Shown here one piece after another: positions 164-56,630 of a stretch of DNA of 64,000 bases. How positions within the stretch are numbered: the first letter of the stretch is position 1; every line of letters starts with the position of its first letter. The notes below the pieces were generated by a model that was given only the letters and a program-made list of their open reading frames with translations, did not search any database and was not told the DNA's origin. The stretch is from NCBI GenBank assembly GCA_038245855.1, contig JBBRSA010000015.1, positions 8,920 through 72,919 on the forward strand. Direction: 5' to 3'. Origin of the DNA: Burkholderiales bacterium (GTDB taxonomy: Bacteria > Pseudomonadota > Gammaproteobacteria > Burkholderiales > Burkholderiaceae_C). The position numbers and the translations under genes are program-made.

Positions 164-335
164 AAGGTACTCCAAAGGGTTTAAAAGTTGCGAGAGCCGC
201 CTGGCAATACACCACGCGACCCAACTGCAGGTTAGGGCTTGCGGCGAGCGCGGTCTGTGCGATGCGACACTTAGAGCGGGCATATTGAAAACGCGGCGCA
301 AAGGCCTGCGCCAGCGAGAGCTGCGGCGCCAATTG

Positions 336-406
336 CTACAAATAACATAGCTGCCTACGCATTGTTTTAGAGGGCTAGAGGCCTAAATTGCCATAAACTT
401 TTGTAG
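336..406 (+). repeat. copy 1 of a dispersed ~71-nt AT-rich repeat (core ATAGCTGC..CGCA..GAGGGCTAGAGGC..ATTTG)
   Basis: ctacaaataacatagctgcctacgcattgttttagagggctagaggcctaaattgccataaacttttgtag. Aligns position by position with 8053-8125(-), 42452-42522, 54890-54961 and 56560-56630. Intergenic, with termini ctacaaa/tttgtag inverted. Confidence 0.8.
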
Positions 407-479: not shown

Positions 480-664
480 GACCGTTGCCATAGGCTGCGT
501 TACGGTCCGAGATGCCCAGCGCCCAAGGCGTCTAAAGCGACTAAGAATCCGCTGTTTTGGTGTGTGGGGCGGTGCGCGGGGGCTAGGCCCTGTCTAGGGA
601 TAAACTGGTTGTGCTCAAGTCCGGCAATGTGCCAGTCGACGGCGCCTTGCGAACGGAGAAGAGC

Positions 665-3600
665 ATGACAAGCAAAAAAAAGACCCCTATTGCGCCCATT
701 GCGCCCATTGCGACCATTGAACCCAGTGCAGCGGTTGCGCCTTTACAGCTTGGCCAGAGCCCCGTTGCCAGTTTCCCCATCGTTGGCATCGGCGCCTCCG
801 CCGGCGGCCTGGCGGCGTTTGAAGCCTTTTTTGCGGGTATGCCCGGCGATGCAGACCCCGACATGGCATTTGTGTTGGTGCAGCACCTAGCGCCCGACCA
901 CAAAAGTATTCTGACCGAGCTGATCCAGCGCTACACCCGCATGAAGGTGTTCGAGGTAGAAGACGGCATGGTGGTGCAGCCCAATTGCGCCTACATCATT
1001 CCGCCCAACCGCGACATGGCCTTTTTGAATGGCGCCCTGCACCTGCTGGAGCCTTCTGCACCGCGCGGCCAGCGCCTGCCCATCGACTTCTTGTTTCGTT
1101 CACTGGCGCAAGACCAGTGCGAGCGGGCCATTTGCATCGTGCTGTCGGGCACCGGCAGTGATGGTGCATTAGGCGTGCGGGCCATCAAGGATGCGGGCGG
1201 CATGGTGATGGTGCAGTCGCCTGCCACCGCTGAGTTCGATGGCATGCCCCGCAGTGCGGTGGCCACCGGCGTGGTGGATTACGAGTTACCGCCCTCTGAA
1301 ATGGCTGCCCAGCTAATGAATTACGTGGCCCACGCGTTTGGCAAACTGCCGCGCCTGACCGTGCAGGTGGCGCCGCAAAATGGCAATGCGCTCAAAAGAA
1401 TTTTTATATTGTTGCGGGCGCAAACCAGCCACGACTTTTCGCAGTACAAACCCAGCACCATTTACCGCCGTATTGAGCGGCGCATGGCGGTGAACCAGAT
1501 TGAGACGGTAGACGGCTACGTCAAGTTTTTGCAGCAATCGTCCCAAGAGGTGGAGGCGCTGTTTCGCGACCTGCTGATTGGGGTGACCAATTTCTTTCGT
1601 GACCCCGAGGTGTTCCGAACCCTGGAAGATCAGGTTATTCCCAAGCTCTTTGACAACAAGCCCGCAGGCAGTGTGGTGCGGGTATGGTCCACCGGCTGCT
1701 CTACGGGGGAAGAGGCCTATTCCATCGCTATTCTTCTGCAAGAGCGCATGGAAGCCCTCAAACAGCGCTACACCGTGCAGGTGTTTGCCACCGACATCGA
1801 CAGCCGGGCCATTGCCACGGCCCGGCTGGGGTTGTACCCGGCGGGTATTGCGGCCGACATTACGCCGCAACGGCTGGCGCGCTTTTTCACACCCGAGTCC
1901 GACGGCAGTGGCTACCGCATTCACAAGTCGATTCGCGACATGCTGGTGTTCTCTGAGCAAGACGTGCTCAAAGACCCGCCGTTCTCTAAGCTCGATCTGG
2001 TGAGTTGCCGAAACCTTTTGATCTACCTGGACGGGAATTTACAAAAGCGCTTGATCCCCCTGTTTCACTACGCGCTCAATCCCAATGGCATGCTGTTCTT
2101 GGGTAGCTCGGAAGGCGTGGGCGACTTTCATGATTTGTTCCATACGCTGGACCGCAAAGCCAAGCTATTCCAACGCAAGCCCGATTTTCACGGCATGCAG
2201 CGTGCGGTGCCCAGCCGCTTTTTGCCGGCCCCGGGCGCGGTCGATGTGGTGCCCACCGCAGGTGCCGCCAAGGCCGCAGCCCCTGCCAAGCTGCCGCTGC
2301 GCGATCTGACCGAACAGGCGCTCTTGAACGCGCTGGCGCCGCCCAGCGCGCTGGTGAACCGGGCGGGGGACATTCTTTATGTGTATGGCCGCACGGGCAT
2401 GTACCTGGAGCCGGCCTCGGGCGAGTCGGGTGTGAACAATATTCTGAAAATGGCGCGCGAAGGCTTGCGCCAAGACCTGACCATTGCCTTGCGCAAAGCC
2501 GTTAGCACCCATGAGACGGTGCGCGCCATGGGTCTGAGCATCAAAACCAATGGTCACTTCACCACCACGCACCTCAGCGTTTCGCCGGTTTCGATGGTTG
2601 CACCGGGTGCGACGGGCATAGCGGAGGATGCCGATTCGTCTCTCTACCTGGTGATGCTGCAAGCTGCGCCGGAACAAGGCCACGGCGTGACCCCGTTGCA
2701 TGTGGTGCGACCGTCGGCGCCACACTCCGAATCGGAAGCCAGCGCCGACGCCGCGGCCCAGATCGCCGCACTGCGCCACGAGTTGCGGGCCAAAGACGAA
2801 TACCTGCAGACCACGCATGAAGAGCTGGAGACCTCGAACGAAGAGCTCAAGTCGTCCAACGAAGAAATGCAATCGGTCAACGAGGAGCTGCAGTCGACCA
2901 ACGAAGAGCTGGAAACCTCGAAAGAAGAACTGCAGTCGGTCAACGAAGAACTGGCCACGGTCAATAACGAGCTGCAAACCAAGGTGGCCGACTTGTCACG
3001 CTCCAACAACGACATGAACAACCTGCTGGCCGGCACCGGTGTTGCCACCGTGTTTGTGGACCCGCAGCTGCGCATTTTGCGCTTTACCCCGGCGGTCACG
3101 CAGATCATCAACCTGATTCCGGGTGACGTGGGGCGGCCGGTGGGCCACATCGTCTCGAACCTGGTGGGCTACGACCAATTGGTGCAAGACGCCCAGGCGG
3201 TGCTGAACACCTTGGCGCCCAAAGAGGTGGAACTGCAGACCAAGGCCGGCAAGTGGTACATGATGCGCATCCAGCCCTACCGCACGCTGAACAATGTGAT
3301 TGAGGGCGTGGTGCTGTCGTTTGTGGACATTAACGACATGGTCAAAATACGCACCGCGCTGCACAAGACCAACGAGGTACTGCGCCTGGCCGTGGTGGTG
3401 CGCGATGCGCATGACGCCATCACCGTGCAAGACCTGGATGGCACGATTCTGGCCTGGAACCCCGGTGCGGTGAAGCTGTATGGCTGGTCAGAGGCCGAGG
3501 CACTGGCCATGAATGTGCGCAAGCGCATGCCCGCAGAACAGCATGCGCAAGCCAAGGCGCTGGTGCAGCAGCTCAGCCGGGGTGAAACTGTGGCACCCTA

Positions 3601-3730
3601 CACCGCGCAGCGGCTAAACAAGGCCGGCAATGCGTTGTCGGTACACATCACCGCAACCGGCTTGATTGACCACGCCGGCCAGGTGTATGCCATTGCCACC
3701 ACTGAGCACGTGCAGGATAGTCCGCAATGA
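665..3730 (+). CDS. CheB methylesterase / CheR methyltransferase fusion protein with heptad coiled coil and C-terminal PAS domains
   Basis: ORF 611-3730; ATG 665 has GGAG 6 nt upstream. Contains a CheB-like IVGIGASAGG motif, a CheR SAM-methyltransferase region, seven EELxSxN heptads and PAS-like C-terminal modules. Confidence 0.9.
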   Translation: MTSKKKTPIAPIAPIATIEPSAAVAPLQLGQSPVASFPIVGIGASAGGLAAFEAFFAGMPGDADPDMAFVLVQHLAPDHKSILTELIQRYTRMKVFEVEDGMVVQPNCAYIIPPNRDMAFLNGALHLLEPSAPRGQRLPIDFLFRSLAQDQCERAICIVLSGTGSDGALGVRAIKDAGGMVMVQSPATAEFDGMPRSAVATGVVDYELPPSEMAAQLMNYVAHAFGKLPRLTVQVAPQNGNALKRIFILLRAQTSHDFSQYKPSTIYRRIERRMAVNQIETVDGYVKFLQQSSQEVEALFRDLLIGVTNFFRDPEVFRTLEDQVIPKLFDNKPAGSVVRVWSTGCSTGEEAYSIAILLQERMEALKQRYTVQVFATDIDSRAIATARLGLYPAGIAADITPQRLARFFTPESDGSGYRIHKSIRDMLVFSEQDVLKDPPFSKLDLVSCRNLLIYLDGNLQKRLIPLFHYALNPNGMLFLGSSEGVGDFHDLFHTLDRKAKLFQRKPDFHGMQRAVPSRFLPAPGAVDVVPTAGAAKAAAPAKLPLRDLTEQALLNALAPPSALVNRAGDILYVYGRTGMYLEPASGESGVNNILKMAREGLRQDLTIALRKAVSTHETVRAMGLSIKTNGHFTTTHLSVSPVSMVAPGATGIAEDADSSLYLVMLQAAPEQGHGVTPLHVVRPSAPHSESEASADAAAQIAALRHELRAKDEYLQTTHEELETSNEELKSSNEEMQSVNEELQSTNEELETSKEELQSVNEELATVNNELQTKVADLSRSNNDMNNLLAGTGVATVFVDPQLRILRFTPAVTQIINLIPGDVGRPVGHIVSNLVGYDQLVQDAQAVLNTLAPKEVELQTKAGKWYMMRIQPYRTLNNVIEGVVLSFVDINDMVKIRTALHKTNEVLRLAVVVRDAHDAITVQDLDGTILAWNPGAVKLYGWSEAEALAMNVRKRMPAEQHAQAKALVQQLSRGETVAPYTAQRLNKAGNALSVHITATGLIDHAGQVYAIATTEHVQDSPQ

Positions 3731-5544
3731 GCCAACCCATGCAACCAGAGGCCCCCCTCATGTCAAACACAAACTCCGGCTTTGGGCCACTACTGCGCCG
3801 CCGGGCCGATGCCATTGCCGCGGCAACGGCCACCGATGCGTTTGAGGAAATTGTGAGCTTGGCGCCCAATGAAATACGGGCCACCTTGCACGAACTGCGG
3901 GTGCACCAGATCGAGCTGGGCATGCAAAACGAAGAGCTGCGCCGCGCGCAGGTGCAACTGGACGCCTCGCGGGCCCTCTATTTCGATCTGTACGACCTAG
4001 CGCCAGTGGGCTATTGCACCCTGAGCAAAGAGGGTGTGATTTTACATGCCAACTTGACCGCGGGCACCCTGCTGGGCCAGGCCCGCTCGCAGTTGATCGG
4101 CAAACCCATCTGCCGCTTTATCCTGAAAGCAGACCAAGATGTGTACTACCTGCACCGCAAAATGCTCTTGGAACACGGCGACTTGCAATCGTGTGAGTTG
4201 CACATGGTGCGAGGCGACGGACTTACGTTTTGGGCGAACCTGGTGTCCTCTGGGGTGGAAGACCCCGATGGCGTGGCGGTGCACCGTGTCGTTTTGAGCG
4301 ACATTTCAGACCGCAAACGCATGGAGCGGTCACTGCAAGAAAAAAACGCCGCATTGGAAGATGCGACGCAGGTGGCAGAAAAAGCCAACCGGGCCAAGTC
4401 TGAATTTCTGTCGAGCATGAGCCATGAGTTTCGCACCCCGCTCAACGCCATCTTGGGGTTTGCCCAATTGATGGAGGCCGGTGCACCGGCGCCCACGCCG
4501 GGTCAAAAATCCAGAATCGACCAAATTTTGAAGGCGGGTTGGTACCTGCTGGAGTTGGTGAACGAGATTTTGGACCTGGCGGTGATTGAGTCGGGCAGCG
4601 TGTCATTGACCATGGAGCCCTTGCTGCTGTGCGATGTGCTAACCGACTGCGAGGCCATGATCGAGCCCTTGGCGCAGACCAATGGCATTGCCGTCTCTTA
4701 CTGCCCGGTCGACCCGACTTGTTTTGTACACGCCGACCATTTGCACCTGAAGCAGGTGCTGATCAATTTGATCAGCAACGCGATCAAATACAACCGCGCC
4801 GGCGGCACCGTGACCGTGACGTGCGGCCTGGGCCCGAGTGGGCGCATACGCATTAGTGTGCGCGACACCGGCCACGGTTTGTCGGCCGATAAATTGAACC
4901 ATTTGTTTCAACCGTTTAACCGCTTGGGGCAAGAGGCCGGGGCCGTGAAAGGCACCGGCATTGGCCTGGTGGTGAGCAAACGTTTGGTGGAGCTGATGGG
5001 CGGCGAAATCGGGGTGCACAGCACCGTGGGCGAAGGCACGGTTTTTTGGTTTGAGTTGGACATGACGCATGCCCCCTCACCCGTGGCAGAGAGTGGGGCT
5101 TGCGAGCTGCACGGTGGCTCTAGGCCAGCGCCCCTGCACGGCGAACCGCTACAACATACCGTTTTGTATGTAGAAGACAACCTAGAGAACCTGCAACTGG
5201 TGGAGGAACTCATTGAGCGGCGACCCGAGCTGCATTTACTCACCGCCCGTGACGCGGTCAGCGGCATTGCACTGGCGCGCATCCACCAGCCCACGCTGAT
5301 TCTGATGGACATTCAGCTGCCGGGCATGAGTGGAATCGAGGCGCTCAAGGTGTTGCGTGAAGACCCGGTCACCCAGCACATACCCGTGCTGGCACTGACT
5401 GCCAATGCCATGGAATCGGGAATTGAACACGGCCTAGAGGCGGGGTTTTTTCGCTACATCACCAAGCCGATCAAGATCACCGCTTTTATGGATGTGTTGG
5501 ACGAGGCGCTGGTATTTGCGCACTCCAGCTGGCCGCCACTTTAG
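3727..5544 (+). CDS. PAS-containing hybrid sensor histidine kinase/response regulator (paralogue 1)
   Basis: ATGA overlap with the upstream gene. H-box SSMSHEFRTPLNAILGF, HATPase motifs (DTGHGL, GTGIGL) and a C-terminal REC domain (LMDIQLPGMSG). Confidence 0.9.
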   Translation: MSQPMQPEAPLMSNTNSGFGPLLRRRADAIAAATATDAFEEIVSLAPNEIRATLHELRVHQIELGMQNEELRRAQVQLDASRALYFDLYDLAPVGYCTLSKEGVILHANLTAGTLLGQARSQLIGKPICRFILKADQDVYYLHRKMLLEHGDLQSCELHMVRGDGLTFWANLVSSGVEDPDGVAVHRVVLSDISDRKRMERSLQEKNAALEDATQVAEKANRAKSEFLSSMSHEFRTPLNAILGFAQLMEAGAPAPTPGQKSRIDQILKAGWYLLELVNEILDLAVIESGSVSLTMEPLLLCDVLTDCEAMIEPLAQTNGIAVSYCPVDPTCFVHADHLHLKQVLINLISNAIKYNRAGGTVTVTCGLGPSGRIRISVRDTGHGLSADKLNHLFQPFNRLGQEAGAVKGTGIGLVVSKRLVELMGGEIGVHSTVGEGTVFWFELDMTHAPSPVAESGACELHGGSRPAPLHGEPLQHTVLYVEDNLENLQLVEELIERRPELHLLTARDAVSGIALARIHQPTLILMDIQLPGMSGIEALKVLREDPVTQHIPVLALTANAMESGIEHGLEAGFFRYITKPIKITAFMDVLDEALVFAHSSWPPL

Positions 5545-7274: not shown

Positions 7275-10262
7275 TTAGGCGCTGGGGTGGCCTGGCTGAA
7301 GCAACTGCCGCAACACAAACGGCAATATGCCCCCGGCGCGGTAGTAGTCCACCTCAATGGGGGTGTCAATGCGCAGCAGCAGGGTGTGCGTGGTTTGCGT
7401 GCCATCGGCATGGGTGACGAACAGTTGCGCGTCGCTCTGCGGTGTGAGGCCGGGGTCGGGGACGATGGCAATGGTCTCGGTGCCGGTCAGGCCCAAGGTG
7501 TGCCAGGATTCCCCCGCCTTGAACTGCAGCGGCAACACCCCCAAGCCGACCAGGTTGCTGCGGTGAATGCGCTCAAAGCTCTGCGCCACCACGGCTTTGA
7601 TGCCCAGCAACTGCGTGCCCTTGGCGGCCCAGTCGCGGCTGGACCCGGTGCCGTACTCTTCACCCGCAAACACCACGGTGGGAATGCCCGCCGCCATGTA
7701 GCGGGTGGCGGCGTCATAAATGGGCATCTTTTCGCCTGGCATATCGCCCGGCAGGCTGGCGACAGCGCCGCCGTAGTACAGCGTGACGCCGCCCTCCTCG
7801 CGCGAACCATCGGCCAGCTCCGGAATCATTTGGTTTTTGATGCGCACGTTGGCAAAGGTGCCGCGCACCATGACGTCGTGGTTGCCCCGGCGCGCGCCAT
7901 AGGAGTTGAAATCCGCCTTCTGCACGCCATTGGCCCGCAGCCACTGCCCAGCGGGTGAGCGTTCTGGGATGCTGCCCGCCGGGGAGATGTGGTCGGTGGT
8001 GATGGAGTTTCCAAACAGCGCCATGATGCGGGCACCCCGCACGCTTACCGGCGCAGACGAATTTTTAGTGCCAAATTGGCCTGTAGCCCTCGTAGATACT
8101 GCGTGAGCAGCTCCTGATTCAATAGCAAAATCATCGAAAAACGGTGGTTGTGCAATGTAGGTGCTGGGCGGCCAGGTGTAGGCCGTGCCGGCCACGCCCT
8201 TGATTTTTTCCCACAGTTTGCCGGGCTCGGTTGCCACCTTGGCGTAGTTGGCGCGGAAGGCCTTGCCCTTCATGGCGTACTTCATCAGCGCGTGAATCTC
8301 GTCACTGCTGGGCCAAATGTCGCCCAGGTACACGTCTTTTCCGCCCTTGCCTTGGCCCACGGGCTGGGTCATCAGGTCGACCATCACATTGCCGGCAATG
8401 GCGTAGGCCACCACCAGCGGCGGGCTGGCCAGAAAATTGGCCTTGAGGTTGGGGTGGATGCGGGCCTCGAAGTTGCGGTTGCCCGACAGCACGGCGGCAC
8501 AGACCAGGTCGTTTTTGGTGATGACCGCATTGAGCTCTGGCGCCAGGTCACCCGAGTTGCCAATGCAGGTGGTGCAGCCGTAGCCGGCCAGTGCAAAGCC
8601 CAGTTTCTCTAGGTAGGGCAACAAGCCCGCCTCGGTCAGGTATTCGGTCACGATGCGCGAGCCAGGGGCCAGGGATGTCTTGATGTGCGGCTGCACGCTC
8701 AGGCCCGCCGCGACGGCTTTCTTGGCCAGCAAACCGGCTGCCAGCATCACACTGGGGTTGGAGGTGTTGGTGCAACTGGTGATGGCGGCAATCAGCACAT
8801 CGCCGTTGCCAATGCGCAGGCCGTCGCTCTCAGGGTCTGGCGCGGTGGGGGCAGACACCTGGGCGGGCCCGGGCGCATTGGCCGCGGCTTTGGTGGACTC
8901 TAGCGTCGGGCGGTTGAGTACCATCTCCGCCACGTCGCGGGCTGCGCCCGGGAAAGGGGGTGCGACGACAGGGGCCACGGTCTCGTGCGGCAACGCGGCG
9001 CTGTGCAATGGGTAGCGCAGGGCCAGTTTGCCAGGCAGTTGGTTAAAGCCGTTCTCGGCATTGGATTTGCTAAACAGGCTGGCAAAGGTTGGGGCCACTT
9101 TACCCAGCTCAATGCGGTCTTGTGGCCGTTTGGGGCCGGCCAGGCTGGGGGTTACATCGCCCAGGTCGAGCGACACCACGCTGGTGTAGTCCACCTCACC
9201 GCGTAAGGGAATCCCAAACAAACCTTGCGCCTTGAAGTAGGCCGCAAAGGCCTCGATCTCGGCTTGGGTGCGGCCCGTGCCTTCAAAATAAGCAAGGGTC
9301 TTTTCATCAACCGGAAAAAAGCCCATGGTGGCGCCGTACTCGGGCGCCATATTGGCAATGGTGGCACGGTCGGGCAGCGCCAGGGTGCGTGTGCCTTCGC
9401 CAAAGAATTCGACAAACTTACCCACCACCTTGTGCTGGCGCAGCAGCTCGGTCACGGTGAGCACCAAGTCGGTGGCGGTGACGCCTTCGCGCAGGCGCCC
9501 GGTCAGCTCCATGCCCACCACGTCGGGGGTCAGCAGGTACACCGGCTGGCCCAGCATGGCGGCCTCGGCCTCAATGCCGCCCACGCCCCATCCCACCACG
9601 CCAATGCCGTTGATCATGGTGGTGTGGCTATCGGTGCCCACCAGCGTGTCGGGGTAGTAGATGCCTTTTGCCGACTGGTGCACACCGCGCGCCAAGTACT
9701 CCAGGTTCACCTGGTGCACGATGCCAAAGCCCGGTGGCACCACGCCAAAGGTGTCAAAGGCTTGCATGCCCCATTTCATGAACTCGTAGCGCTCGCGGTT
9801 GCGCACAAATTCGAGCTGCATGTTCAGCTCCAGCGAGTTCTTTTTGCCGTAGTGGTCCACCATGACCGAGTGGTCTACCACCAAGTCCACCGGCACCAGG
9901 GGTTCAATCTTTTTGGGGTCATACCCCAAGCGCTGGGCGGTGCTGCGCATGGCGGCCAGGTCGGCCAACAGCGGCACGCCGGTAAAGTCTTGCAGCACCA
10001 CGCGGCTGACCACAAAGGGGATTTCGTCGGTGCGCTCGGCCACGGGCTGCCACTGGGCCACCTGCGCTACGTGCTCGGCAGTGACCTTTTTGCCATCGCA
10101 GTTGCGCAGCACCGACTCCAGCACGATGCGCATAGAAACCGGCAGGCGCTGGATGTTGGGAAATTGGGCTGCCAGTGCAGGCAGCGAGTACAACTGCCCT
10201 TGCGTACCCGAGGCGGTGCGAAAGCTCGTAAGCGTGTGGGCAAAAGTGTGGGCGAGGGCCAT
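7275..10262 (-). CDS. acnA: aconitate hydratase A (long form, with insertions)
   Basis: ORF 7275-10310; ATG 10262 has AGGAG upstream. Conserved [19 protein letters not shown] and [15 protein letters not shown] motifs. Confidence 0.95.
8053..8125 (-). repeat. copy 2 of the ~71-nt AT-rich repeat, inside acnA and in frame
   Basis: The reverse complement ctattgaatcaggagctgctcacgcagtatctacgagggctacaggccaatttggcactaaaaattcgtctgc aligns with the other copies. Visibly AT-rich patch in a GC-rich gene. Encodes [26 protein letters not shown]. Confidence 0.75.
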
Positions 10263-10282
10263 GTGGAACTCCTGGTGGGTAA

Positions 10283-11662
10283 TCAGATCATCTGCTCGGG
10301 ACGAACCCATGCGTCAAACTGCGCGGCACTGACAAAACCCGAGGCCAGTGCGGCCTCGCGCAGGGTGCTGCCGCTAGTATGGGCCTGCTTGGCAATGTGT
10401 GCTGCACGGTCGTAGCCAATGTGCGGGGTGAGTGCGGTCACCAGCATCAAAGAGCGCCCCAGCGAATCGGCAATGCGCGTGCGATCTGGCTCCAAACCTT
10501 GCAAGCAATACGCATCCAAACTCTGCATGCTGTCGGCCAGCAAACGCACGCTTTGCAGAAAGTTGTGCGCAATCACCGGTTTGAACACGTTGAGCTCAAA
10601 ATTACCCATGGCGCCGCCCATACCGATGGCCACATCGTTGCCCATTACCTGGCAGCACACCATGGTCATGGCCTCGCATTGCGTGGGGTTGACTTTGCCC
10701 GGCATGATGGAGCTGCCGGGCTCGTTCTCGGGGATTTTCAGCTCACCCAGGCCGCAACGTGGGCCGCTGGCCAGCCAACGAATGTCGTTGGCAATTTTGA
10801 ACAAGGCCACCGCCAGCGTCTTGAGCGCGCCATGCGCTTGCACCAAGGGGTCGTGGCAGGCCAATGCGGCAAAGCGGTTTTCGGCACACGCGAACGCCAT
10901 ACCGGTTTCCAACGCCAGTTGCTGTGCCACACGGGCACCAAATTCGGGGTGGGTATTGAGACCGGTGCCCACCGCGGTGCCACCCACAGCGAGCGCCAGC
11001 AGAGCGGGCAGGCTGGCGGTGATGGCGTGGTCGGCATGGCGGAACTGGGCCACCCACCCGGATATTTCTTGCCCCAGCGTGAGGGGTGTGGCGTCTTGTA
11101 GGTGCGTTCGGCCGGTTTTGACGATGCTTGCAAAGTCGATGGCCTTGTGTTCCAACGTGGCCTGCATCGCCCGCAGTGCGGGCAGCAAATGGTGTTCGAT
11201 GGCGCCCACGGCGGCAACGTGCATGGCCGTTGGAAAAATGTCGTTGGACGATTGCCCCAGATTGACGTGGTCATTCGGGTGCACCCGCCGTGCAGCGCCC
11301 CGCTGGCCGCCCAACATCTGCGACGCCAGGTTTGCCAGCACCTCGTTCATGTTCATGTTGGTTTGGGTGCCCGACCCGGTTTGCCATACCGACAAGGGAA
11401 ACGCATCCCAGTGGGCACCCGCACGCACTGCGTCGGCCGCGCCGCAGATGGCGTCTGCGATGATGCCGTCCAGCAAGCCCAGCTCGCTGTTGACCACGGC
11501 ACCCAGGCGCTTGAGCTGCGCCAAGGCCCTGAGTAGCTCCACCGGCATGCGTTCGGTGGAGATATGAAAATGGAGCAGCGAGCGTTGGGTCTGGGCGCCC
11601 CACAAGGCGTTGTCATCGACCGCAATCGAACCCAGCGAGTCGGTCTCAAAACGGGTTGGCAT
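10283..11662 (-). CDS. fumC: class II fumarate hydratase
   Basis: 459 aa with the [16 protein letters not shown] signature and an [12 protein letters not shown]-terminus. Confidence 0.95.
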
Positions 11663-28729: not shown

Positions 28730-29236
28730 TTATCCACACTGCTCGGTCAGACTGCGCAGGCGCGCCTCGCAGTCCTGCAACGCGGCCGTGCGTTCGCGCA
28801 CCTGGCGCTCCAACTCTTGGTTGTCATGCATCAACTGTTTGTAGCGCAGCCGCACTTCCAGCATGTTGTGGATACGTGTTCTGAGTTCGGTCAAGTCGAA
28901 GGGTTTGCTGACAAAGTCTTTGGCCCCGGCTTGCAGCGCCCGCAGTTTGTGGCCCGGTTGGGCGGTAATAGCCAGCACCGGAAGGTAGTCGTCCTGTTGG
29001 TCGGCTTTTAGGCCTGTGATGACTTGAAAGCCGTCCATCACGGGCATCTGCAGGTCCAGCAGAATCAGGTCATATTGGTTCTTTCTGTGCAGGGCACGCA
29101 CCTCCGTGGGTTGCTGCGTGGACGCCATGTTGGTGTATCCCGCATCTACGAGTATTTGCTCCAACAGGCGAACATTGGGCTCTTGATCGTCCACGATCAG
29201 AATGCTGGATTTGAGAATGTCTGATTCGGTAATCAT
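28730..29236 (-). CDS. response regulator (REC domain plus coiled-coil tail)
   Basis: ILIVDDQ...DLILLDLQMPVMDG...KPF. Close paralogue of the REC part of 37973-38797. Confidence 0.9.
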   Translation of the reverse strand: MITESDILKSSILIVDDQEPNVRLLEQILVDAGYTNMASTQQPTEVRALHRKNQYDLILLDLQMPVMDGFQVITGLKADQQDDYLPVLAITAQPGHKLRALQAGAKDFVSKPFDLTELRTRIHNMLEVRLRYKQLMHDNQELERQVRERTAALQDCEARLRSLTEQCG

Positions 29237-30945
29237 GGTTGTGCACCGTTGTTTCCTATCTGCCCCAAAGCCGATTGCGAGGCGGCCAATGCATCGTCGA
29301 GTGCGTCCATAAATTGGCGGACCTTGATGGGCTTGGTGATGTAGTTGAAGAACCCCGCCTCTATGCCTCTGGCGACATCACGCGGAACGGCATTGGCGCT
29401 CAGGGCGATGACGGGAATGTGGGCGGTACGTGGGTCGGCGCGCAAAATTCGCATGGCTTCAATGCCGCTGATTCCTGGCAGATTGATATCCATCAAAATA
29501 ATGGCGGGCTGACGCGTGCGTGCCAGTTCGATGCCCCTGCGGCCATCGGTTGCGCTTATGAGGCGCAGACCCACGCGGCGGGCAATGAGTTGTTCCACCA
29601 GGTCGAGGTTGGCCGGGTTGTCTTCCACATAGAGCAGGGTGAGCAGGTTTGTACCCGCAACGGCTTGCGCGCGCCAACCGGCGTCGTGCTCATACTCCAG
29701 GGTGTCCACCACCGGTGCTGCGGTTAGCGTCAGCTCAATCCAGAACACACTTCCCGCGTTTACTGTGCTTTCTACGCCAATCGCGCCACCCATCAATTCA
29801 ATCAGCCGCTTTGTCACCACCAAGCCTATGCCTGTGCCTTCCTCTGCGCTGGTTTCCCGGCCCAGGCGGTTGAATGGCTGAAACAGTTGTGCCATTTGCG
29901 CGTCGGTTAGGCCTAGGCCTGTATCGCGCACGTTGATGCGAATCGTGTCGCACGGGCCCAGCGCGTAGTCCACAGTAACCGCCCCATTGGGCTGGTTGTA
30001 TTTGACGGCGTTGAACAGCAGGTTGATCAGCACCTGCTTGACCCGCGTACGGTCGGCATTGACAAAGTGAGGGGTCACAAACGGTGCAAAACCCATGCTA
30101 ATGCCCCGGTGGTTGGCTTGAGGCTCAATCATGGCCTGGCATTCCTGCAACACTTCGGTGAGCGAGACCGCCTCTTTGGACAGGGTTAGTCGGCCGGACT
30201 CAATCAGCGCTAGGTCTAGTATCTCGTTGATCAAAGTCAACAGGTACCAGCCGGCCTTCAAGATTTGTTCTAGGTTGCGCCGCTGCGATGGTGTGGGTGT
30301 TGGTGTGCCGGTTTCGACCAACTGCGCAAAACCCAAAATGGCATTGAGGGGGGTGCGCAATTCATGGCTCATGCTGGAGAGAAAGTCCGACTTGGCCCGG
30401 TTTGCCTTATCAGCCGTCTCCATGGCGTGGCTCAGCGCCGCCTGCACTTGCTTACCGACGGAGTTGTTGGTTCCAATGAGCAAATAACCAATGACGTTGC
30501 TGCGATCGTCGCGCAGTGCGGTGATGGAGACGATGGCCGGAAAGCGGCGCCCGTCTTTGCAGATATAGGTCAACTCATAAATGTCTTCCAGGTTACGCAA
30601 CGCTTTGTACGCCAGCGCCTCAAAGCCGGGCGCAATGGGGGTCTTGAACTCTTCTGACAAGGCCGCAGCGCGGTCTAAAACCTCCTGTGGTTCATGGATG
30701 TCGCTGGGCTGCAGGCGGTTGACCACCTCGGCGGCTTCGTATCCCAGCATGTGCTCGGCGCCGGTGTTGAATACCTGGATGGTGCCGCGAGCGTCGGTGG
30801 CGATGATCGCAAAATCGGCGCTGCTCAGAATGGCCTGCTGCAACACGCCGGTTTTTGTAAAGTCATTTCTACCGCGCGGGTTGCGCCGGTCCACGTGGCA
30901 ATGCGTTCGTTGGACCGGTGAACGACGTTCCCTGATTTCTTGCAT
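29233..30945 (-). CDS. PAS-containing hybrid sensor histidine kinase/response regulator (paralogue 2)
   Basis: H-box SSMSHELRTPLNAILGF, HATPase and C-terminal REC. The PAS block is nearly identical in pattern to that of 35277-37976. ATGA overlap with the downstream RR gene. Confidence 0.9.
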   Translation of the reverse strand: MQEIRERRSPVQRTHCHVDRRNPRGRNDFTKTGVLQQAILSSADFAIIATDARGTIQVFNTGAEHMLGYEAAEVVNRLQPSDIHEPQEVLDRAAALSEEFKTPIAPGFEALAYKALRNLEDIYELTYICKDGRRFPAIVSITALRDDRSNVIGYLLIGTNNSVGKQVQAALSHAMETADKANRAKSDFLSSMSHELRTPLNAILGFAQLVETGTPTPTPSQRRNLEQILKAGWYLLTLINEILDLALIESGRLTLSKEAVSLTEVLQECQAMIEPQANHRGISMGFAPFVTPHFVNADRTRVKQVLINLLFNAVKYNQPNGAVTVDYALGPCDTIRINVRDTGLGLTDAQMAQLFQPFNRLGRETSAEEGTGIGLVVTKRLIELMGGAIGVESTVNAGSVFWIELTLTAAPVVDTLEYEHDAGWRAQAVAGTNLLTLLYVEDNPANLDLVEQLIARRVGLRLISATDGRRGIELARTRQPAIILMDINLPGISGIEAMRILRADPRTAHIPVIALSANAVPRDVARGIEAGFFNYITKPIKVRQFMDALDDALAASQSALGQIGNNGAQP

Positions 30946-37976: not shown

Positions 37977-38797
37977 AAATCGACCAAACCGATATTTTGA
38001 ACGCCCGGATTTTGATCGTTGACGACCAGCAGGCCAATGTGAGTCTGCTGGAAACCATGCTGCTGGATGTGGGCTACACCTGCATCAGCGCCACGACGAA
38101 TCCGACTGAAGTCTGCGCGTTGCACCGCGCAAACAGTTATGACCTGATTTTGCTGGACCTGCAAATGCCGGTTATGGATGGTTTTGCGGTCATGGAAGCG
38201 CTTAACGCACAGAATACGATGGGTTATGTTCCGGTGCTGGTGATAACGGCCCAGCCAGCACACAAGCTGCGCGCCTTGCAGGCTGGGGCCAAAGACTTCA
38301 TCAGCAAACCCTTTGACCTGGTAGAGGCCAAAACCCGTATCCACAACATGCTAGAAGTGCGCCTGCTCTACAAAAAGCTGGACGACTACAGCAAAGTGTT
38401 GGAGCAGACGGTGCTGGAGCGCACCGCCGAATTGCGCGAGAGCGAAGCCCGCTACCGAAGCCTGACCGAGCTGGCCTCAGACTGGTATTGGGAGCAAGAC
38501 GATACGGGTAGTTTTACCAAGGTGTCCGGCCCTGTTTTGGAGATGCTTGGTATTCAGGTTGGCACCAGTTCAGAGCCGCCCGCCGATGCCTTGGTTGCGA
38601 ACTGGAATGAGGCTGAACGCGAGACGCTGAAATCCAAGATATTTGCGCGGCAACCGTTTCTGGACTTTATTTTTAGCCGGGCCAATGCCGATGGCTCCAA
38701 GCAGCGGTTCAAGGTGAGTGGAGAGCCCATGTTCAACCAGGCCAGCCGATTTATTGGCTATCGGGGCATTGGTGTTGAACTGGCCGACAACGAATAG
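37973..38797 (+). CDS. response regulator with REC, coiled coil and PAS domains
   Basis: ATGA overlap with the kinase gene. ILIVDDQ...LLDLQMPVMDG...KPF, then WYWEQD...PAS-like C-terminus. Confidence 0.9.
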   Translation: MKIDQTDILNARILIVDDQQANVSLLETMLLDVGYTCISATTNPTEVCALHRANSYDLILLDLQMPVMDGFAVMEALNAQNTMGYVPVLVITAQPAHKLRALQAGAKDFISKPFDLVEAKTRIHNMLEVRLLYKKLDDYSKVLEQTVLERTAELRESEARYRSLTELASDWYWEQDDTGSFTKVSGPVLEMLGIQVGTSSEPPADALVANWNEAERETLKSKIFARQPFLDFIFSRANADGSKQRFKVSGEPMFNQASRFIGYRGIGVELADNE

Positions 38798-42416: not shown

Positions 42417-42451
42417 TGCCGTTGCGGAGCTGCGGATATAGCAATAAATTG

Positions 42452-42522
42452 CTATATAAAAAAGAGCAGCTTACGCAGGTTGCATGAGGTCTAGAGGCCC
42501 ATTTGAATGGAAAAATCCCCGG
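42452..42522 (+). repeat. copy 3 of the ~71-nt AT-rich repeat, preceded by a 22-bp palindrome
   Basis: ctatataaaaaagagcagcttacgcaggttgcatgaggtctagaggcccatttgaatggaaaaatccccgg. ATATAGCAAT-aa-ATTGCTATAT at 42436-42457 overlaps its 5' end. Confidence 0.75.
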
Positions 42523-50629: not shown

Positions 50630-52700
<2,071 letters not shown>

Positions 52701-54001: not shown

Positions 54002-54895
54002 ATGCCCACGACAGCACAAGACCGGTCGGCAATGCGTTCTGCGCAGGTAAAGGAGGAGCCCGCAAAGCGGGCGGGGGACACGGAGCAGAGCGCATTGCTG
54101 ACTGGTCGCTCCGGAGGAAATGCGTGGCACATAGGCGGCCGCACCCTCACCAGCCGCTTCTTCCTAGGCACCGCCGGTTACCCCTCACCCGACATACTGC
54201 AACAAGCCATCGCCGCCAGCGGAGCGCAAGTCGTCACCATGGGCCTGCGCCGCCAGTTGTCTGCGAGTGGAAAGGCCGATGATTTCTTCGCATTGGTTAA
54301 AGCCACCGGTGCCCACCTGCTGCCCAACACCGCTGGCTGCCACACCGCACGCGAAGCCATCACCCTGGCCCACATGGCACGCGAGCTGTTTGATACGAAC
54401 TGGATCAAGCTCGAAGTCATTGGCGACGCCCACACCCTGCAACCCGACCCGTTTGAGTTGGTCGAAGCCGCCCGCCAGTTGGCCAAAGACGGCTTTGAAG
54501 TCTTCCCCTACTGCATGGATGACCTGGTCAGTTGCCAGCGCCTGCTGGACGTGGGCTGCACTATCCTCATGCCCTGGGGCGCGCCCATTGGCTCCGGCCA
54601 GGGTCTGGTCAACCCCGGCGCGCTGCGCACCTTGCGTGCCCGCTTGCCCGGTGTGCCGCTGATTGTGGATGCCGGCATCGGCCGCCCATCGGATGCGGCG
54701 CAGGCACTGGAGCTGGGGCTGGATGGCGTGCTGCTCAATACCGCCGTGGCTCAAGCCATCGACCCGATTCGCATGGCGCATGCGTTCAAACTCGGCATTG
54801 AGGCCGGACGTTTGGCTTTTGAAGCCGGTGTCATGGCCAAGCAAGACATGGCCGTAGCCTCGACCCCGGTGGCGGGTTACCCCATTTTGCTATGA
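54002..54895 (+). CDS. thiG: thiazole synthase
   Basis: [19 protein letters not shown]...KLEVIGD...IVDAGIG. The true start may be the in-frame TTG at 54095 (GGAG 9 nt upstream), giving a typical 266-aa protein. Confidence 0.9.
54021..54106. repeat. ~86-nt palindromic element between thiS and the conserved part of thiG
   Basis: Arms accggtcggcaatgcgttctgc / gcagagcgcattgctgactggt match 19 of 22 as inverted repeats. Inner hairpin GCCCGC-aaa-GCGGGC. Confidence 0.7.
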
Positions 54896-54961
54896 ATATA
54901 ATAGCTGCTTGCGCAGATTCCATGAGGGCTAGAAGCACATTTGGCACTAAGAATTCCACAG
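54890..54961 (+). repeat. copy 4 of the ~71-nt AT-rich repeat at the thiG/thiDE junction
   Basis: ctatgaatataatagctgcttgcgcagattccatgagggctagaagcacatttggcactaagaattccacag. Contains the thiG stop and the ATG that opens the thiDE ORF. Confidence 0.8.
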
Positions 54962-56571
54962 CACCCCACGGCACACGGCCGGTAGTGTGGAGCATTGCCG
55001 GGTCTGACTCGGGCGGCGGCGCGGGCCTGCAGGCCGACCTCAAAGCCTTGGCCGCCTTTGGTGTACATGGCTGCACGGCGGTAGCGGCCATCACCGCGCA
55101 AAACTCACAGGCCGTCACCTTGGTGGAGCCCGTCAGTGCTGCGTTGCTGGATGCCCAGTTAGCTGCATTGGCGCATGACATGCCGCCCCAGGCCATCAAA
55201 ACTGGCCTCTTGGGCAGCGTGGCCAATGTGCAGGTCGTCTGCCGCTGGGTAGACCGGCTGCGTGAAGATGCGGCCGCCCACGGCCACACCATCGCCCTGG
55301 TGGTAGACCCGGTGCTGGGCGCCACCACCGGCGCCACCTTTGCCAATGCTGAGGTACTGAACGCCTATGTGACCGAGCTACTACCGCGCGCCACGCTGAT
55401 TACCCCCAATCACGCCGAAGCCGCGCGTTTGTTGGGGCTGGACGGTTTGCCCGAGGGTGGGGTGGAGGCCGCCGCCTTGGCGCTGACACAGCGCTACCCT
55501 CAGTTGGCGGTAGCCATCACCGGCGGCGACGTTGCGCATGGTCACGCAAAGGATGATGCCCCAGGTACTGAGCAGGCCCATGACTACCTACACTGCGGCC
55601 AAACTCGTGGCTGGCTGACATTGCCGCGCGTGGAAACCTCGCACCACCACGGCACCGGTTGCACCTTTGCCTCCACCGCCGCAGCCGCACTGGCCAGCGG
55701 CTACTGCGTGGCCGACGCAGTGGTGCTGGCCAAAATGGCCACCACCCACGCCTTGCGCCATGGCTACGCAGCAGGGCAGGGCGCAGGACCGGTGCGCGCG
55801 CAGGCAGACTTTGCGCAACACGCAGACAACCTGCCTGGCCTTTCCATTGACGCAGACAGCGTTGCGACCAACGCGGCACGGCCGCTTGGTAATGCCACAC
55901 ATAAAATTAACAGCCCCCATGCTGCAGCCCACGTTGGCTTCCCGCCGCTGCAGAACGCCGACATGAGCATCTATGCCGTAGTGGATTCCGCCCAGTGGGT
56001 ACGTCGCGTGCTGGCTGCCGGCATCCGTACGGTGCAACTGCGTATCAAAGACCCACAGGAATCGACACTGGTCGCGCAGATCACAGAAGCCGTCGCCATC
56101 GCCCGTGCCACCCCCGGCGCTCAACTCTTCATCAATGACCATTGGCAGCTCGCCCTGCAGTACGGCGCCTATGGTGTGCATCTGGGGCAAGAGGATTTGG
56201 AGTTAGTCGACCTGCACGCCCTGCGCAGTGCTGGTGTGCGTCTGGGCCTGAGCACCCACAGCTACTGGGAAGTCTGCCGCGCCTGGGCGCTGCGCCCGAG
56301 TTACATCGCCTGTGGCCCCATCTTTGCCACCCACAGCAAAGACATGCCCTGGATCCCCCAAGGCCTTGGCAACTTACGCTACTGGGCGCAGCTGCTGCCG
56401 TTGCCGGTGGTGGGTATTGCCGGCATTGGCGTGCACAACGTGGCCGAGGTCGCCGCTACCGGCGCAGCCAGCGCGGCAGTCATCAGCGCCATTACCCAGG
56501 CGGATGAACCGGCGCAGGCTTGCCGAGCGTTGATGGCGGGATTCGTGCAGGGTAAATCGCTATCTTTATAG
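54892..56571 (+). CDS. thiDE: bifunctional hydroxymethylpyrimidine/phosphomethylpyrimidine kinase and thiamine-phosphate synthase (ThiD-ThiE fusion)
   Basis: N-half is [18 protein letters not shown] (ThiD). C-half is VQLRIKD...FINDHWQLA...GVHLGQEDL...GLSTHS (ThiE). The true start may be the in-frame GTG at 54985, after the repeat. Confidence 0.85.
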
Positions 56572-56630
56572 GAGCTACCTGCGCAATGTGTACGAGGGCT
56601 GGGTGGTGTTTTGATGGGCATTCTTGGAGG
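56560..56630 (+). repeat. copy 5 of the ~71-nt AT-rich repeat at the 3' end of thiDE
   Basis: ctatctttataggagctacctgcgcaatgtgtacgagggctgggtggtgttttgatgggcattcttggagg. Supplies the last codons (LSL) and the TAG of thiDE. Confidence 0.7.

Follow-up and report, generated by a model that had tools for sequence, protein, structure and literature searches.

The gene acnA lies on the minus strand of the 64-kb window, by which we mean the whole stretch of DNA analyzed here, and encodes an IRP1/AcnA-type aconitase of 995 amino acids (7275..10262). Its open frame runs without interruption over 7275-10310(-), extending upstream of 10262 to 10310, and the 995-residue protein read from 10262 is 100% identical to database protein P0001 and matches human IRP1 (2B3X) with E=6e-268 in phmmer. 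Embedded in this frame, at 8055..8131 on the minus strand, is a copy of a two-hairpin repeat of the Comamonadaceae. The original prediction, made from the letters and ORFs alone, held that a repeat copy sits in frame within an uninterrupted acnA, and both parts of that claim proved correct. Two successive profiles, based on 22 and 57 intergenic copies and free of any acnA sequence, matched acnA 8129-8059/8062(-) in nhmmer at 56.1 bits (E=2.9e-15) and 53.8 bits (E=1.7e-14), respectively, which is the level reached by the best intergenic copies. An independent repeat search paired 8050-8131 with 54884-54965 (82 nt, 73%). The G+C content of the insert is 46%, compared to 63% for the whole gene and 80% at its third codon positions.

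The insertion falls where it had been placed, in the linker ahead of the C-terminal swivel domain. The 19 codons S716-N734 (8061..8117, minus strand) have no counterpart in human IRP1 in phmmer alignments to 2B3X and 3SN2, and the 19-residue gap in 2B3X lies exactly opposite them, between the PPFF and TTDHISPAG blocks, as a net gain in the hinge linker. The distance between these blocks is 49 residues in the window AcnA versus 31 in outgroups, so that the predicted lengthening amounts to ~18-19 residues beyond the ancestral length. Domain 4 of IRP1/AcnA swings on this flexible hinge linker, according to the structural account in PMC7181819, which cites Walden 2006 and Dupuy 2006. An AlphaFold model of AcnA (md679490d1cf6) reached a mean pLDDT of 77.4 and a pTM of 0.82 when eukaryotic IRP1 sequences were added to the input alignment; close homologues alone gave a mean pLDDT of 45 and an unusable model. 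In the usable model, pLDDT fell below 50 solely at residues 716-737 (8052..8117, minus strand), and the adjoining 10-residue blocks stood at 74 and 91. Mapped in this way, as had been suggested, the insert appears as a low-confidence excursion between confident flanks, and together with the IRP1 alignment gap where the hinge linker ends this points to a structurally permissive insertion point.

Four copies besides that of acnA occur in the window, all on the plus strand. The intergenic copy at 328..406 (nhmmer, 51.2 bits) carries TAG at 368-370 in the frame read in acnA, as originally reported. Another lies between convergent ORFs at 42444..42522 (52.9 bits), with a G+C-rich hairpin and a T run immediately after it. 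The copy at the thiG/thiDE junction (54882..54960; 56.5 bits, with sequence, ORFs and Pfam limits considered) provides the final 4 codons and TGA stop of thiG and includes the earliest ATG of the thiDE ORF; stop and start overlap as ATGA (54892-54895). As originally noted, the thiDE ORF does start in the same repeat frame, but the peptide is an ORF reading only: Pfam places the beginning of the ThiD domain at ORF residue 39, and the true start codon may lie further downstream. A partial copy at the end of thiDE (56552..56630; 34.7 bits, E=1.4e-8) provides the final 5 codons and TAG stop (56569-56571) of this gene in another frame.

The repeat is ~75 nt long and has the consensus TTTGCTAT-N7-ATAGCTGCTAGCGC-loop-GCGCTAGAGGCCnATTTGGCTTAAAA. 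Relatives were sampled as loci of ~20 kb each and the source genome as 64 kb, which yielded ~90 non-acnA copies in 1.5 Mb of Comamonadaceae loci and a density of ~8 copies per 100 kb in the sampled Comamonadaceae genomes. The repeat is predominantly extragenic and lies downstream of genes; ~4% of the sampled copies are intragenic, and copies adjoin or overlap stop codons, namely those of thiG, of thiDE and of a TetR and a FAD_binding_3 gene. Across 45 intergenic copies, a two-helix structure specified by hand pairs in 73.8% of cells, compared to 25-46% in controls with the partners slid by 1-3 columns. Covariation in these copies is modest (28 double-sided cells versus 20.6 expected), and RNAalifold predicted no consensus structure from their alignment. 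ATAGC, GTAGC or GGAGC precedes hairpin 2, and the same head doubles as the 3' arm of hairpin 1. By inspection of 22 copies with flanks, we found no terminal inverted repeats and no co-varying flank duplication, and the element is therefore not classed as a MITE. At gathering or E-value thresholds, no copy was matched by an Rfam family. One sense frame, here called frame 'a', is without stops in 48/75 intergenic copies, compared to 3-20 for each of the other sense frames, and it reads F-A-I-x-x-I-A-A-x-A-...-A-R-G-x-F.

Besides acnA and the start of the thiDE ORF in the window, frame 'a' is used in a RimO-like protein (L017), an IleS (L064) and an HIBADH-like dehydrogenase (L084) of related genomes; these three candidates are the only in-frame cases counted outside acnA. 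Eleven candidate intragenic copies in long frame-'a' ORFs, flagged by a crude GC3-based gene caller (24 genes in 64 kb), were rejected because those ORFs proved spurious, being either antisense or shifted. Two further hits, in a molybdopterin oxidoreductase (L001) and a histidine kinase (L026), resemble native sequence.

Most acnA orthologues from Rhodoferax, Acidovorax, Polaromonas, Giesbergeria, Ottowia and Melaminivora also contain a copy, with insertion site, strand and frame unchanged. The acnA ORF is intact in 36/36 insert-bearing orthologues examined. Thirty-six acnA copies align over 60 nt without gaps, whereas intergenic copies differ by indels, and the intergenic-only model matches 24 acnA linkers, with every match beginning at the Phe codon. 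Whether the extra residues were specific to a strain or to a lineage had been left to an orthologue alignment, and they belong to the lineage, being common to most of the Comamonadaceae genera sampled; given the shared site, strand and register, the insert is old. The original prediction would have been refuted had orthologues lacking the repeat family shown the same linker sequence; instead, orthologues without detectable nearby copies have short, unrelated linkers. This applies to the outgroups, where the linker is 31 residues long (FTMxPxQ..GVxGAR) and 0 repeat copies were found in 175 kb, as well as to Hydrogenophaga and Caenimonas; in the outgroups and some Comamonadaceae, which include these two genera and R. 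antarcticus, the linker measures 31-33 residues. Linker length across all orthologues ranges from 31 to 63 residues. Some orthologues retain just the 5' part after a partial deletion of the repeat (L082, L083, a 35-residue type in Polaromonas, and Comamonas/Delftia), and within insert-bearing genera the insert is nearly all lost in Acidovorax L019/L023, Polaromonas CF318, P0004 and P0005.

We consider it probable that the acnA copy stems from one old insertion of a REP-like repeat that was tolerated as a flexible loop and has been slowly eroding, an explanation that requires no DNA, RNA or peptide function of the insert's own. A short REP-like two-hairpin repeat would have landed at the end of the acnA hinge linker, just 5' of the part encoding domain 4, and would then have been inherited vertically through much of the Comamonadaceae. 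The stop-free frame, the landing in frame and a surface tether tolerant of length could together explain why the gene stayed functional, with the insert presumably read as a flexible, low-complexity loop rich in Gly, Ala and Ser. Later evolution may have been near-neutral, with fast amino-acid change, decay of the hairpin potential and replacement of hydrophobic by hydrophilic codons. Frequent in-frame deletions and additions would account for linker lengths that today extend from 32 to 63 residues, and the window copy would be one of the best-preserved descendants. The insert is probably translated, given that its frame has long been intact across genera and its composition has shifted toward hydrophilic residues: the Kyte-Doolittle value is -0.79 for acnA insert peptides versus +0.51 for conceptual translations of intergenic copies, and the former are poor in I, L, F, Y, W and C. 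Insert dN is 0.14-0.46 compared to 0.03-0.06 for the flanks in pairs with reliable flanks, namely those with a flank pN of ~0.03-0.06, as the others are inflated by unaligned indels. That a single insertion event occurred and that the insert evolved neutrally is likewise inferred.

An unlikely alternative is that the acnA linker is an insertion hot spot or conversion target, in which case the shared site would make the window copy look much older than it is. Against a single insertion stands the patchy distribution of the insert on the AcnA tree; monophyly of the insert-bearing lineages receives 0% bootstrap, and the never-inserted 'APP'-linker lineages (Hydrogenophaga, R. antarcticus with L028, and the Caenimonas group) fall among the insert bearers, but support is only 13-34% at the nodes on which multiple gains depend. 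One orthologue (L065) has its copy 4 codons (12 nt) further downstream, with a native-looking F-R-L kept before it, and judging from this arrangement the offset copy could be a separate event. A native TTCACGATG also resembles the 5' end of the repeat, TTTGCTATG, and may have offered microhomology. Set against these points is the one ungapped register, strand and frame of 36/36 copies. A candidate 3' microhomology, AAGGATGCC in L028, was dropped because the RimO copy also has GGCCAAAATGAT, and the stretch thus belongs to the repeat.

The state of the window copy bears on the same question. It scores 54-56 bits, and the orthologue copies score 44 or less (a margin of ~10-35 bits). Its canonical ATTTGG 3' part is shared with L081, with CAAAAWG in nearly all other acnA copies, and over ATTTGG..ACTnAAAAT the acnA copies of the window and L081 match the thiG/thiDE copy of the window at 17/18 positions by hand count. 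This similarity would fit conversion, but the presence of the same 3' part in L081 indicates that it is not recent, and intermediate variants among the orthologues (Q-I-G, Q-K-G and Q-N-G) connect both 3' types via single substitutions; for both reasons a recent gene conversion was downgraded. The acnA copies are slightly nearer to intergenic copies of their own clade (0.65 for the window versus 0.55-0.59), a small excess that hints at some exchange between copies. They are nevertheless nearer to one another than to any intergenic class, with identities of 62-75% among acnA copies across genera, 50-65% between acnA and intergenic copies, and 54-62% among intergenic copies themselves. Insert divergence also climbs with that of the host protein, starting at 0.30 and reaching 0.43 (Mantel r=0.27, p=0.01). 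We are more doubtful still that the linker is repeatedly entered or converted and that its embedded copy is live, being exchanged with the intergenic copies or recognized like them, for instance as an RNA hairpin on which apo-aconitase or a repeat-binding factor acts. If this were true, a selfish or regulatory nucleic-acid element would be actively maintained family-wide within the coding part of a gene for a TCA-cycle enzyme.

We also considered that the peptide might have been co-opted, such that a longer flexible tether alters the opening of domain 4, and with it substrate access, Fe-S lability or RNA binding, under selection at the protein level. The long retention of the insert in most genera, its position at a functional hinge (PMC7181819) and the consistently hydrophilic, Gly/Ala/Ser/Asp/Glu-rich peptides, which follow a loosely conserved pattern (GAAxAxSxGAxGQ), are compatible with such a role. 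However, the insert has a dN/dS of ~0.2-1.4, far above that of the flanks, it has no confident structure in the AlphaFold model, and both the highly variable linker length and the near-total losses described above argue against selection for the peptide. We regard co-option as very improbable.

The least credible proposal is that the acnA copy is still a working nucleic-acid element, an RNA or DNA hairpin recognized by a repeat-binding factor or by apo-aconitase and kept by nucleotide selection. Bacterial apo-aconitases bind mRNA, which counts in its favor, as do the repeat-like third positions that persist in the insert (codons such as TTT and GCT, against a GC3 of 80% for the gene), the 4.5/5 and 6.5/10 hairpin pairs that HMM-detected acnA copies retain, as many as intergenic copies in a sample biased to well-preserved ones, and, for a few pairs (window/L084/L085 and L040/L044), an insert dS below that of the flanks. 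Over most pairs, however, insert dS is not clearly below flank dS, the MFE z-score of the acnA copies (-0.59, n=36; -0.34 for the window copy) equals that of control coding windows (-0.66) and reaches only half the value for intergenic copies (-1.30), many lineages have deleted the element in half or in full without consequence, and a genus-level flank dS of ~0.7-0.8 would still leave a neutral relic recognizable.

If a single, tolerated insertion is the correct explanation, the acnA case is informative because the insertion is old and spread over many genera, and the sampled genomes hold the intact, half-deleted and never-inserted states. It would illustrate a route from selfish or structural DNA to a part of a protein, which starts with an open frame in the element and a permissive hinge and continues with hairpin loss, replacement of hydrophobic codons and gradual erosion of the insert. 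The length polymorphism of the linker could be used as a lineage marker. For annotation, repeat-derived gene ends (as in thiG and thiDE) and internal loops are to be expected in Comamonadaceae genomes.

Several known repeat systems resemble this family in part. Like REP/RAYT elements, it is a short imperfect palindrome, the ATAGC/GTAGC before it may correspond to their [AG]TAG-like head, and like REPs it would occur in hundreds of copies per genome, mostly just 3' of genes and rarely between divergent genes. REPs are extragenic by definition. The present repeat differs from them in having two hairpins and in exceeding a single REP in length, its copies showed no inverted REPIN/BIME pairs, and copies within one genome are only ~55-75% identical. 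The family is unnamed, and its one glimpse in the literature is a spaced motif, GCTTAT(N)5AAGCG, reported as a 'potential novel motif' of Acidovorax ebreus TPSY (BMC Genomics 2017 18:27, PMC5217627). This motif is the apex of hairpin 2, given that 12/12 of its matches in the sampled loci lie inside nhmmer-defined copies. Its 114 copies in A. ebreus include 5 that lie within genes and 2 that extend across a gene end, with 44 in convergent, 59 in co-oriented and 4 in divergent settings (PMC5217627). That study gives a spaced-motif statistic only, without a full consensus, the family-wide distribution, a reading-frame analysis or acnA. The Polaromonas naphthalenivorans motif ATAGCT(N)22CAAAAG from the same source had 0 matches in the sampled loci, and we therefore do not equate it with the repeat. 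The BRE family (Hot et al. 2011, PMC3110155) is likewise present in Comamonadaceae genomes with some copies in coding sequences, but identity with BRE was rejected, as the sequences in its supplement are unrelated, 69% G+C (TTTTTGGCCGCGGGCCGCCCAAGGCAAAAAAGCCCCC...) and often tandem.

Intergenic repeats that occasionally form in-frame fusions are also known from intragenic ERIC and other small mobile sequences with ORFs in enterobacteria (Delihas 2007, as covered in PMC10969869). Those are other sequence families in other hosts, and in that coverage the ERIC-type cases are mostly at the strain or species level, whereas the acnA case crosses genera and concerns a central enzyme. The closest parallel is provided by the Rickettsia palindromic elements, or RPEs (Ogata et al. 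2000 Science 290:347; Ogata et al. 2002 Genome Res 12:808), in the terms summarized in PMC10969869. RPEs are ~100-150 nt long, compared to ~75 nt here, their host is a reduced obligate intracellular alphaproteobacterium rather than a free-living betaproteobacterial family of 60-65% G+C, and nearly half of the copies are intragenic for some RPE families versus ~4% of the sampled copies here. Given the different length and host, homology with RPEs is unlikely, and we do not file the element as a member; RPE-like denotes a functional class, not sequence homology. At that level the parallel drawn by the original prediction is sound, with an in-frame palindromic copy in an intact ORF and the same frame used in other genes. 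In both systems a dispersed palindromic family has one coding-compatible frame, enters unrelated housekeeping genes in frame without destroying them, and occupies positions compatible with the fold, and old copies are common to several species and decaying; in both, too, one peptide frame recurs in different host proteins, here in AcnA, RimO, IleS, an HIBADH-like enzyme and possibly ThiDE. Protein-coding palindromic repeats, described as a peculiarity of Rickettsia, thus extend to the free-living, G+C-rich Comamonadaceae.

The minus-strand acnA open reading frame (7275-10310) runs without interruption; read from 10262, it gives a 995-aa product that has an identical database entry and aligns to human IRP1 with E=6e-268. 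A profile seeded from three window copies of the repeat, a palindromic element of about 75 nt, found five copies in the window: four on the plus strand (328-406, 42444-42522, 54882-54960 and 56552-56630) and one in acnA (8055-8131, minus strand). To avoid circularity, the profile was rebuilt from intergenic copies only, with acnA left out. The acnA segment 8129-8059 (minus strand) scored 56.1 bits (E=2.9e-15) when the profile comprised 22 intergenic copies taken from 80 related loci as well as the window, and the acnA copy scored 53.8 bits (E=1.7e-14) with a second profile of 57 copies, which is the level of the best intergenic copies. Independent repeat finding within the window paired 8050-8131 with 54884-54965, and the insert has a G+C content of 46% versus 63% for acnA and 80% at third codon positions. 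The in-frame copy and the peptide listed in the original prediction were both confirmed. The phmmer alignment placed a 19-residue gap in IRP1 exactly opposite S716-N734, between PPFF and TTDHISPAG, where the extra residues had been expected. The insert falls where the hinge linker ends, just ahead of domain 4, the aconitase domain that swings on this linker (PMC7181819).

The intergenic consensus of the repeat, TTGGTTTGCTATTAAATTAATAGCTGCTAGCGCTTTATTCACAAGGGCTAGAGGCCGATTTGGCTTAAAATT, contains two hairpins, GCTAY-N7-RTAGC and GCTGCYAGCGC-loop-GCGCTRGAGGC. Across 45 intergenic copies, 74% of cells were paired in this structure compared to 25-46% in controls in which the pairing partners were shifted by 1-3 columns, and covariation was only modest. 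Identity between intergenic copies is only about 55-62%. Non-acnA copies occur at 8.3 per 100 kb in genomes with the acnA insert, at 1.7 per 100 kb in Comamonadaceae with a 31-33-residue linker, and at 0 in 175 kb of outgroup DNA. Neither terminal inverted repeats nor duplicated target sites were seen in the repeat copies, which matched no family in an Rfam search. The BRE (Hot et al.), which is G+C rich and different, was ruled out as the identity of the repeat. A motif listed without a name in Acidovorax ebreus, GCTTAT(N)5AAGCG, has 114 copies, with 5 inside genes, 44 flanked by convergent genes and 4 by divergent ones (PMC5217627). It corresponds to the apex of hairpin 2, and all 12 pattern matches in the studied loci lie inside repeat copies. 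Copies often adjoin or overlap the upstream gene's stop codon, as at thiG, thiDE and an FAD_binding_3 gene. Given that the last of these carries an orthologous copy at its stop in four related genomes (L081 16366-16434, L082 12010-12077, L083 5270-5342 and L085 22396-22465), single intergenic copies can also be old and positionally conserved. In Acidovorax, a sense-oriented copy at a conserved position precedes the acnA start by ~150-250 nt (L002 9797-9858, L004 9746-9806, L005 ~9771, L006 9745-9816 and L011 9717-9783).

The window also contains other repetitive sequence. Seven tandem 21-nt (heptad) units at 2775-2984, within the long open reading frame 611-3730, encode NEEL-type repeats. Long stretches are also repeated in inverted and direct orientation with 71-77% identity (28741-30687 versus 36114-38471, and 4363-5066 versus 30290-30426 and 37059-37492); the most likely explanation is paralogous genes of the sensor-kinase type that face opposite ways.

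Of the 120 closest AcnA proteins (75-86% identity; Rhodoferax, Acidovorax, Polaromonas), about 115 have a lengthened linker that loosely follows FA[IM]xSGAAxAxSTGAxGQ. The orthologue alignment answered the earlier query of whether the extra residues are strain-specific: they are not, being common to most Comamonadaceae genera compared. Among 85 loci with DNA, the linker from PPFF to TTDHISPAG measures 31 residues in outgroups (Pelomonas, Rubrivivax, Aquabacterium and others; FTMxPxQ..GVxGAR), 31-33 residues with an ancestral-looking APP motif in Hydrogenophaga, the Caenimonas group, Pseudorhodoferax and R. antarcticus, and 43-63 residues in most other Comamonadaceae. In the long linkers, the repeat can be recognised directly in the DNA (TTTGCTATnGAnnnnnnAGCTGCnnGCGC...GGGCTnnAGGCCAAAA). 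Long linkers matched the intergenic-only profile in 24 cases, each time on one and the same strand and with the match beginning at the Phe codon, and 36 acnA copies gave a 60-nt alignment with zero gaps. Short linkers in insert-bearing genera (L082, L083, the Polaromonas 35-residue type and Comamonas/Delftia) retain the 5' part of the repeat or a 3' GGCCAGAAAGA remnant, marking them as deletion derivatives.

We consider a single old insertion event to be the probable origin of the acnA insert, given that all acnA copies agree in register, strand and frame, that across genera these copies are 62-75% identical to each other and 50-65% to intergenic copies, and that inserts differ more between more divergent AcnA proteins (Mantel r=0.27, p=0.01). 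It is unlikely that reinsertion or conversion contributed, even to some extent. Never-inserted lineages are interspersed in the AcnA NJ tree, which would speak for such events, but the relevant nodes have only 13-34% bootstrap. Also against one insertion, the window copy is unusually near the consensus, sharing canonical ATTTGG in its 3' part with L081 where other acnA copies have CAAAAWG, and acnA copies show a slight excess of similarity to intergenic copies of their own clade. In one MAG (L065, 2400-2456), the copy is displaced 12 nt, or four codons, downstream (PPFF-QN-FRLGD-AIES...) with a native-looking F-R-L kept. This copy, too, counts against one insertion; it arose either by a separate insertion or through a later gain of 12 nt. 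A true insertion hot spot would be more exciting but is not supported by the evidence.

The repeat is embedded in the acnA-type frame in three more genes of related genomes. In a RimO-like methylthiotransferase of an Ottowia MAG (L017 14832-14890; GCLGA[KTIAASAGGAGAIGQNDSEN]LVRHLHP), the Pfam UPF0004 match is interrupted, ending exactly at the insert. The copy in IleS (L064 9192-9252, minus strand) immediately precedes the C-terminal CxxCW zinc motif, and the third is in a HIBADH-like NAD-binding dehydrogenase (L084 16007-16063, minus strand). In the window, copy 54882-54960 supplies the last four codons and TGA stop of thiG (54002-54895) and contains the first ATG of the thiDE open reading frame (54892-56571), with an ATGA stop/start overlap. 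This frame does start in the same repeat frame as the acnA insert, as the original prediction had it. The Pfam ThiD domain begins only at residue 39, so the first ATG is a candidate ThiDE start, and as many as ~25 residues encoded by the repeat may be translated there. The last five codons (SLSL) and TAG stop of thiDE come from partial copy 56552-56630, in a frame unlike that of acnA. The thiamine gene cluster also has a TPP riboswitch (Rfam RF00059, 65.7 bits) at 50635-50735 (plus strand), upstream of open reading frame 50769-52700.

The frame used in acnA is the most open frame of the repeat, stop-free in 48 of 75 intergenic copies; TAG at 368-370 does close it in copy 328-406, as had been noted. 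Translated conceptually, intergenic copies give hydrophobic peptides (Kyte-Doolittle +0.51) with many I, F, L, C and Y residues, whereas the inserts in acnA score -0.79 and are hydrophilic, with G, D, E, N, Q and K abundant, a contrast whose p-value ignores shared ancestry. This shift is an argument for translation of the segment and for its adjustment to a solvent-exposed loop. In the AlphaFold model, judged usable (mean pLDDT 77, pTM 0.82), residues 716-737 have pLDDT <50 between blocks of 74 and 91. A second insertion relative to IRP1 (residues 422-479, ~58 residues, window about 8826-8999) is lineage-specific, Pro/Ala-rich and also below pLDDT 50; it gave no match to the repeat model, and some Rhodoferax orthologues (928-934 aa) apparently lack part of it. 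With reliable flanks only, dN was 0.14-0.46 in the insert versus 0.03-0.06 in the flanks. The dN/dS of the insert was about 0.2-1.4, and its dS was not consistently under flank dS. Genus-level flank dS is only about 0.7-0.8, so a neutral relic can remain recognisable. Mean folding z-scores were -0.59 for all 36 acnA copies (-0.34 for the window copy alone), -0.66 for ordinary acnA coding windows and -1.30 for intergenic copies, so the hairpins are not being maintained in acnA; the high hairpin-pair counts of acnA copies reflect a sample biased to well-preserved ones. A nucleic-acid function of the acnA copy, although more exciting, is not supported.

In a search of the open-access literature, neither the acnA insertion nor a coding frame of the repeat turned up. 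Functionally, the acnA insert is an instance of the RPE phenomenon, reportedly described by Ogata in 2000 and 2002. RPEs are dispersed palindromic repeats with a coding-compatible frame, found in frame in housekeeping genes at permissive sites (PMC10969869), and the likeness proposed in the original prediction holds for the dispersed palindrome, the open frame and the in-frame housekeeping insertion at a permissive site. The repeat is not counted as a sequence member of the RPE families, from which length and host set it apart, nor is it one of BRE or Rfam families, and in architecture and placement it resembles REP elements.
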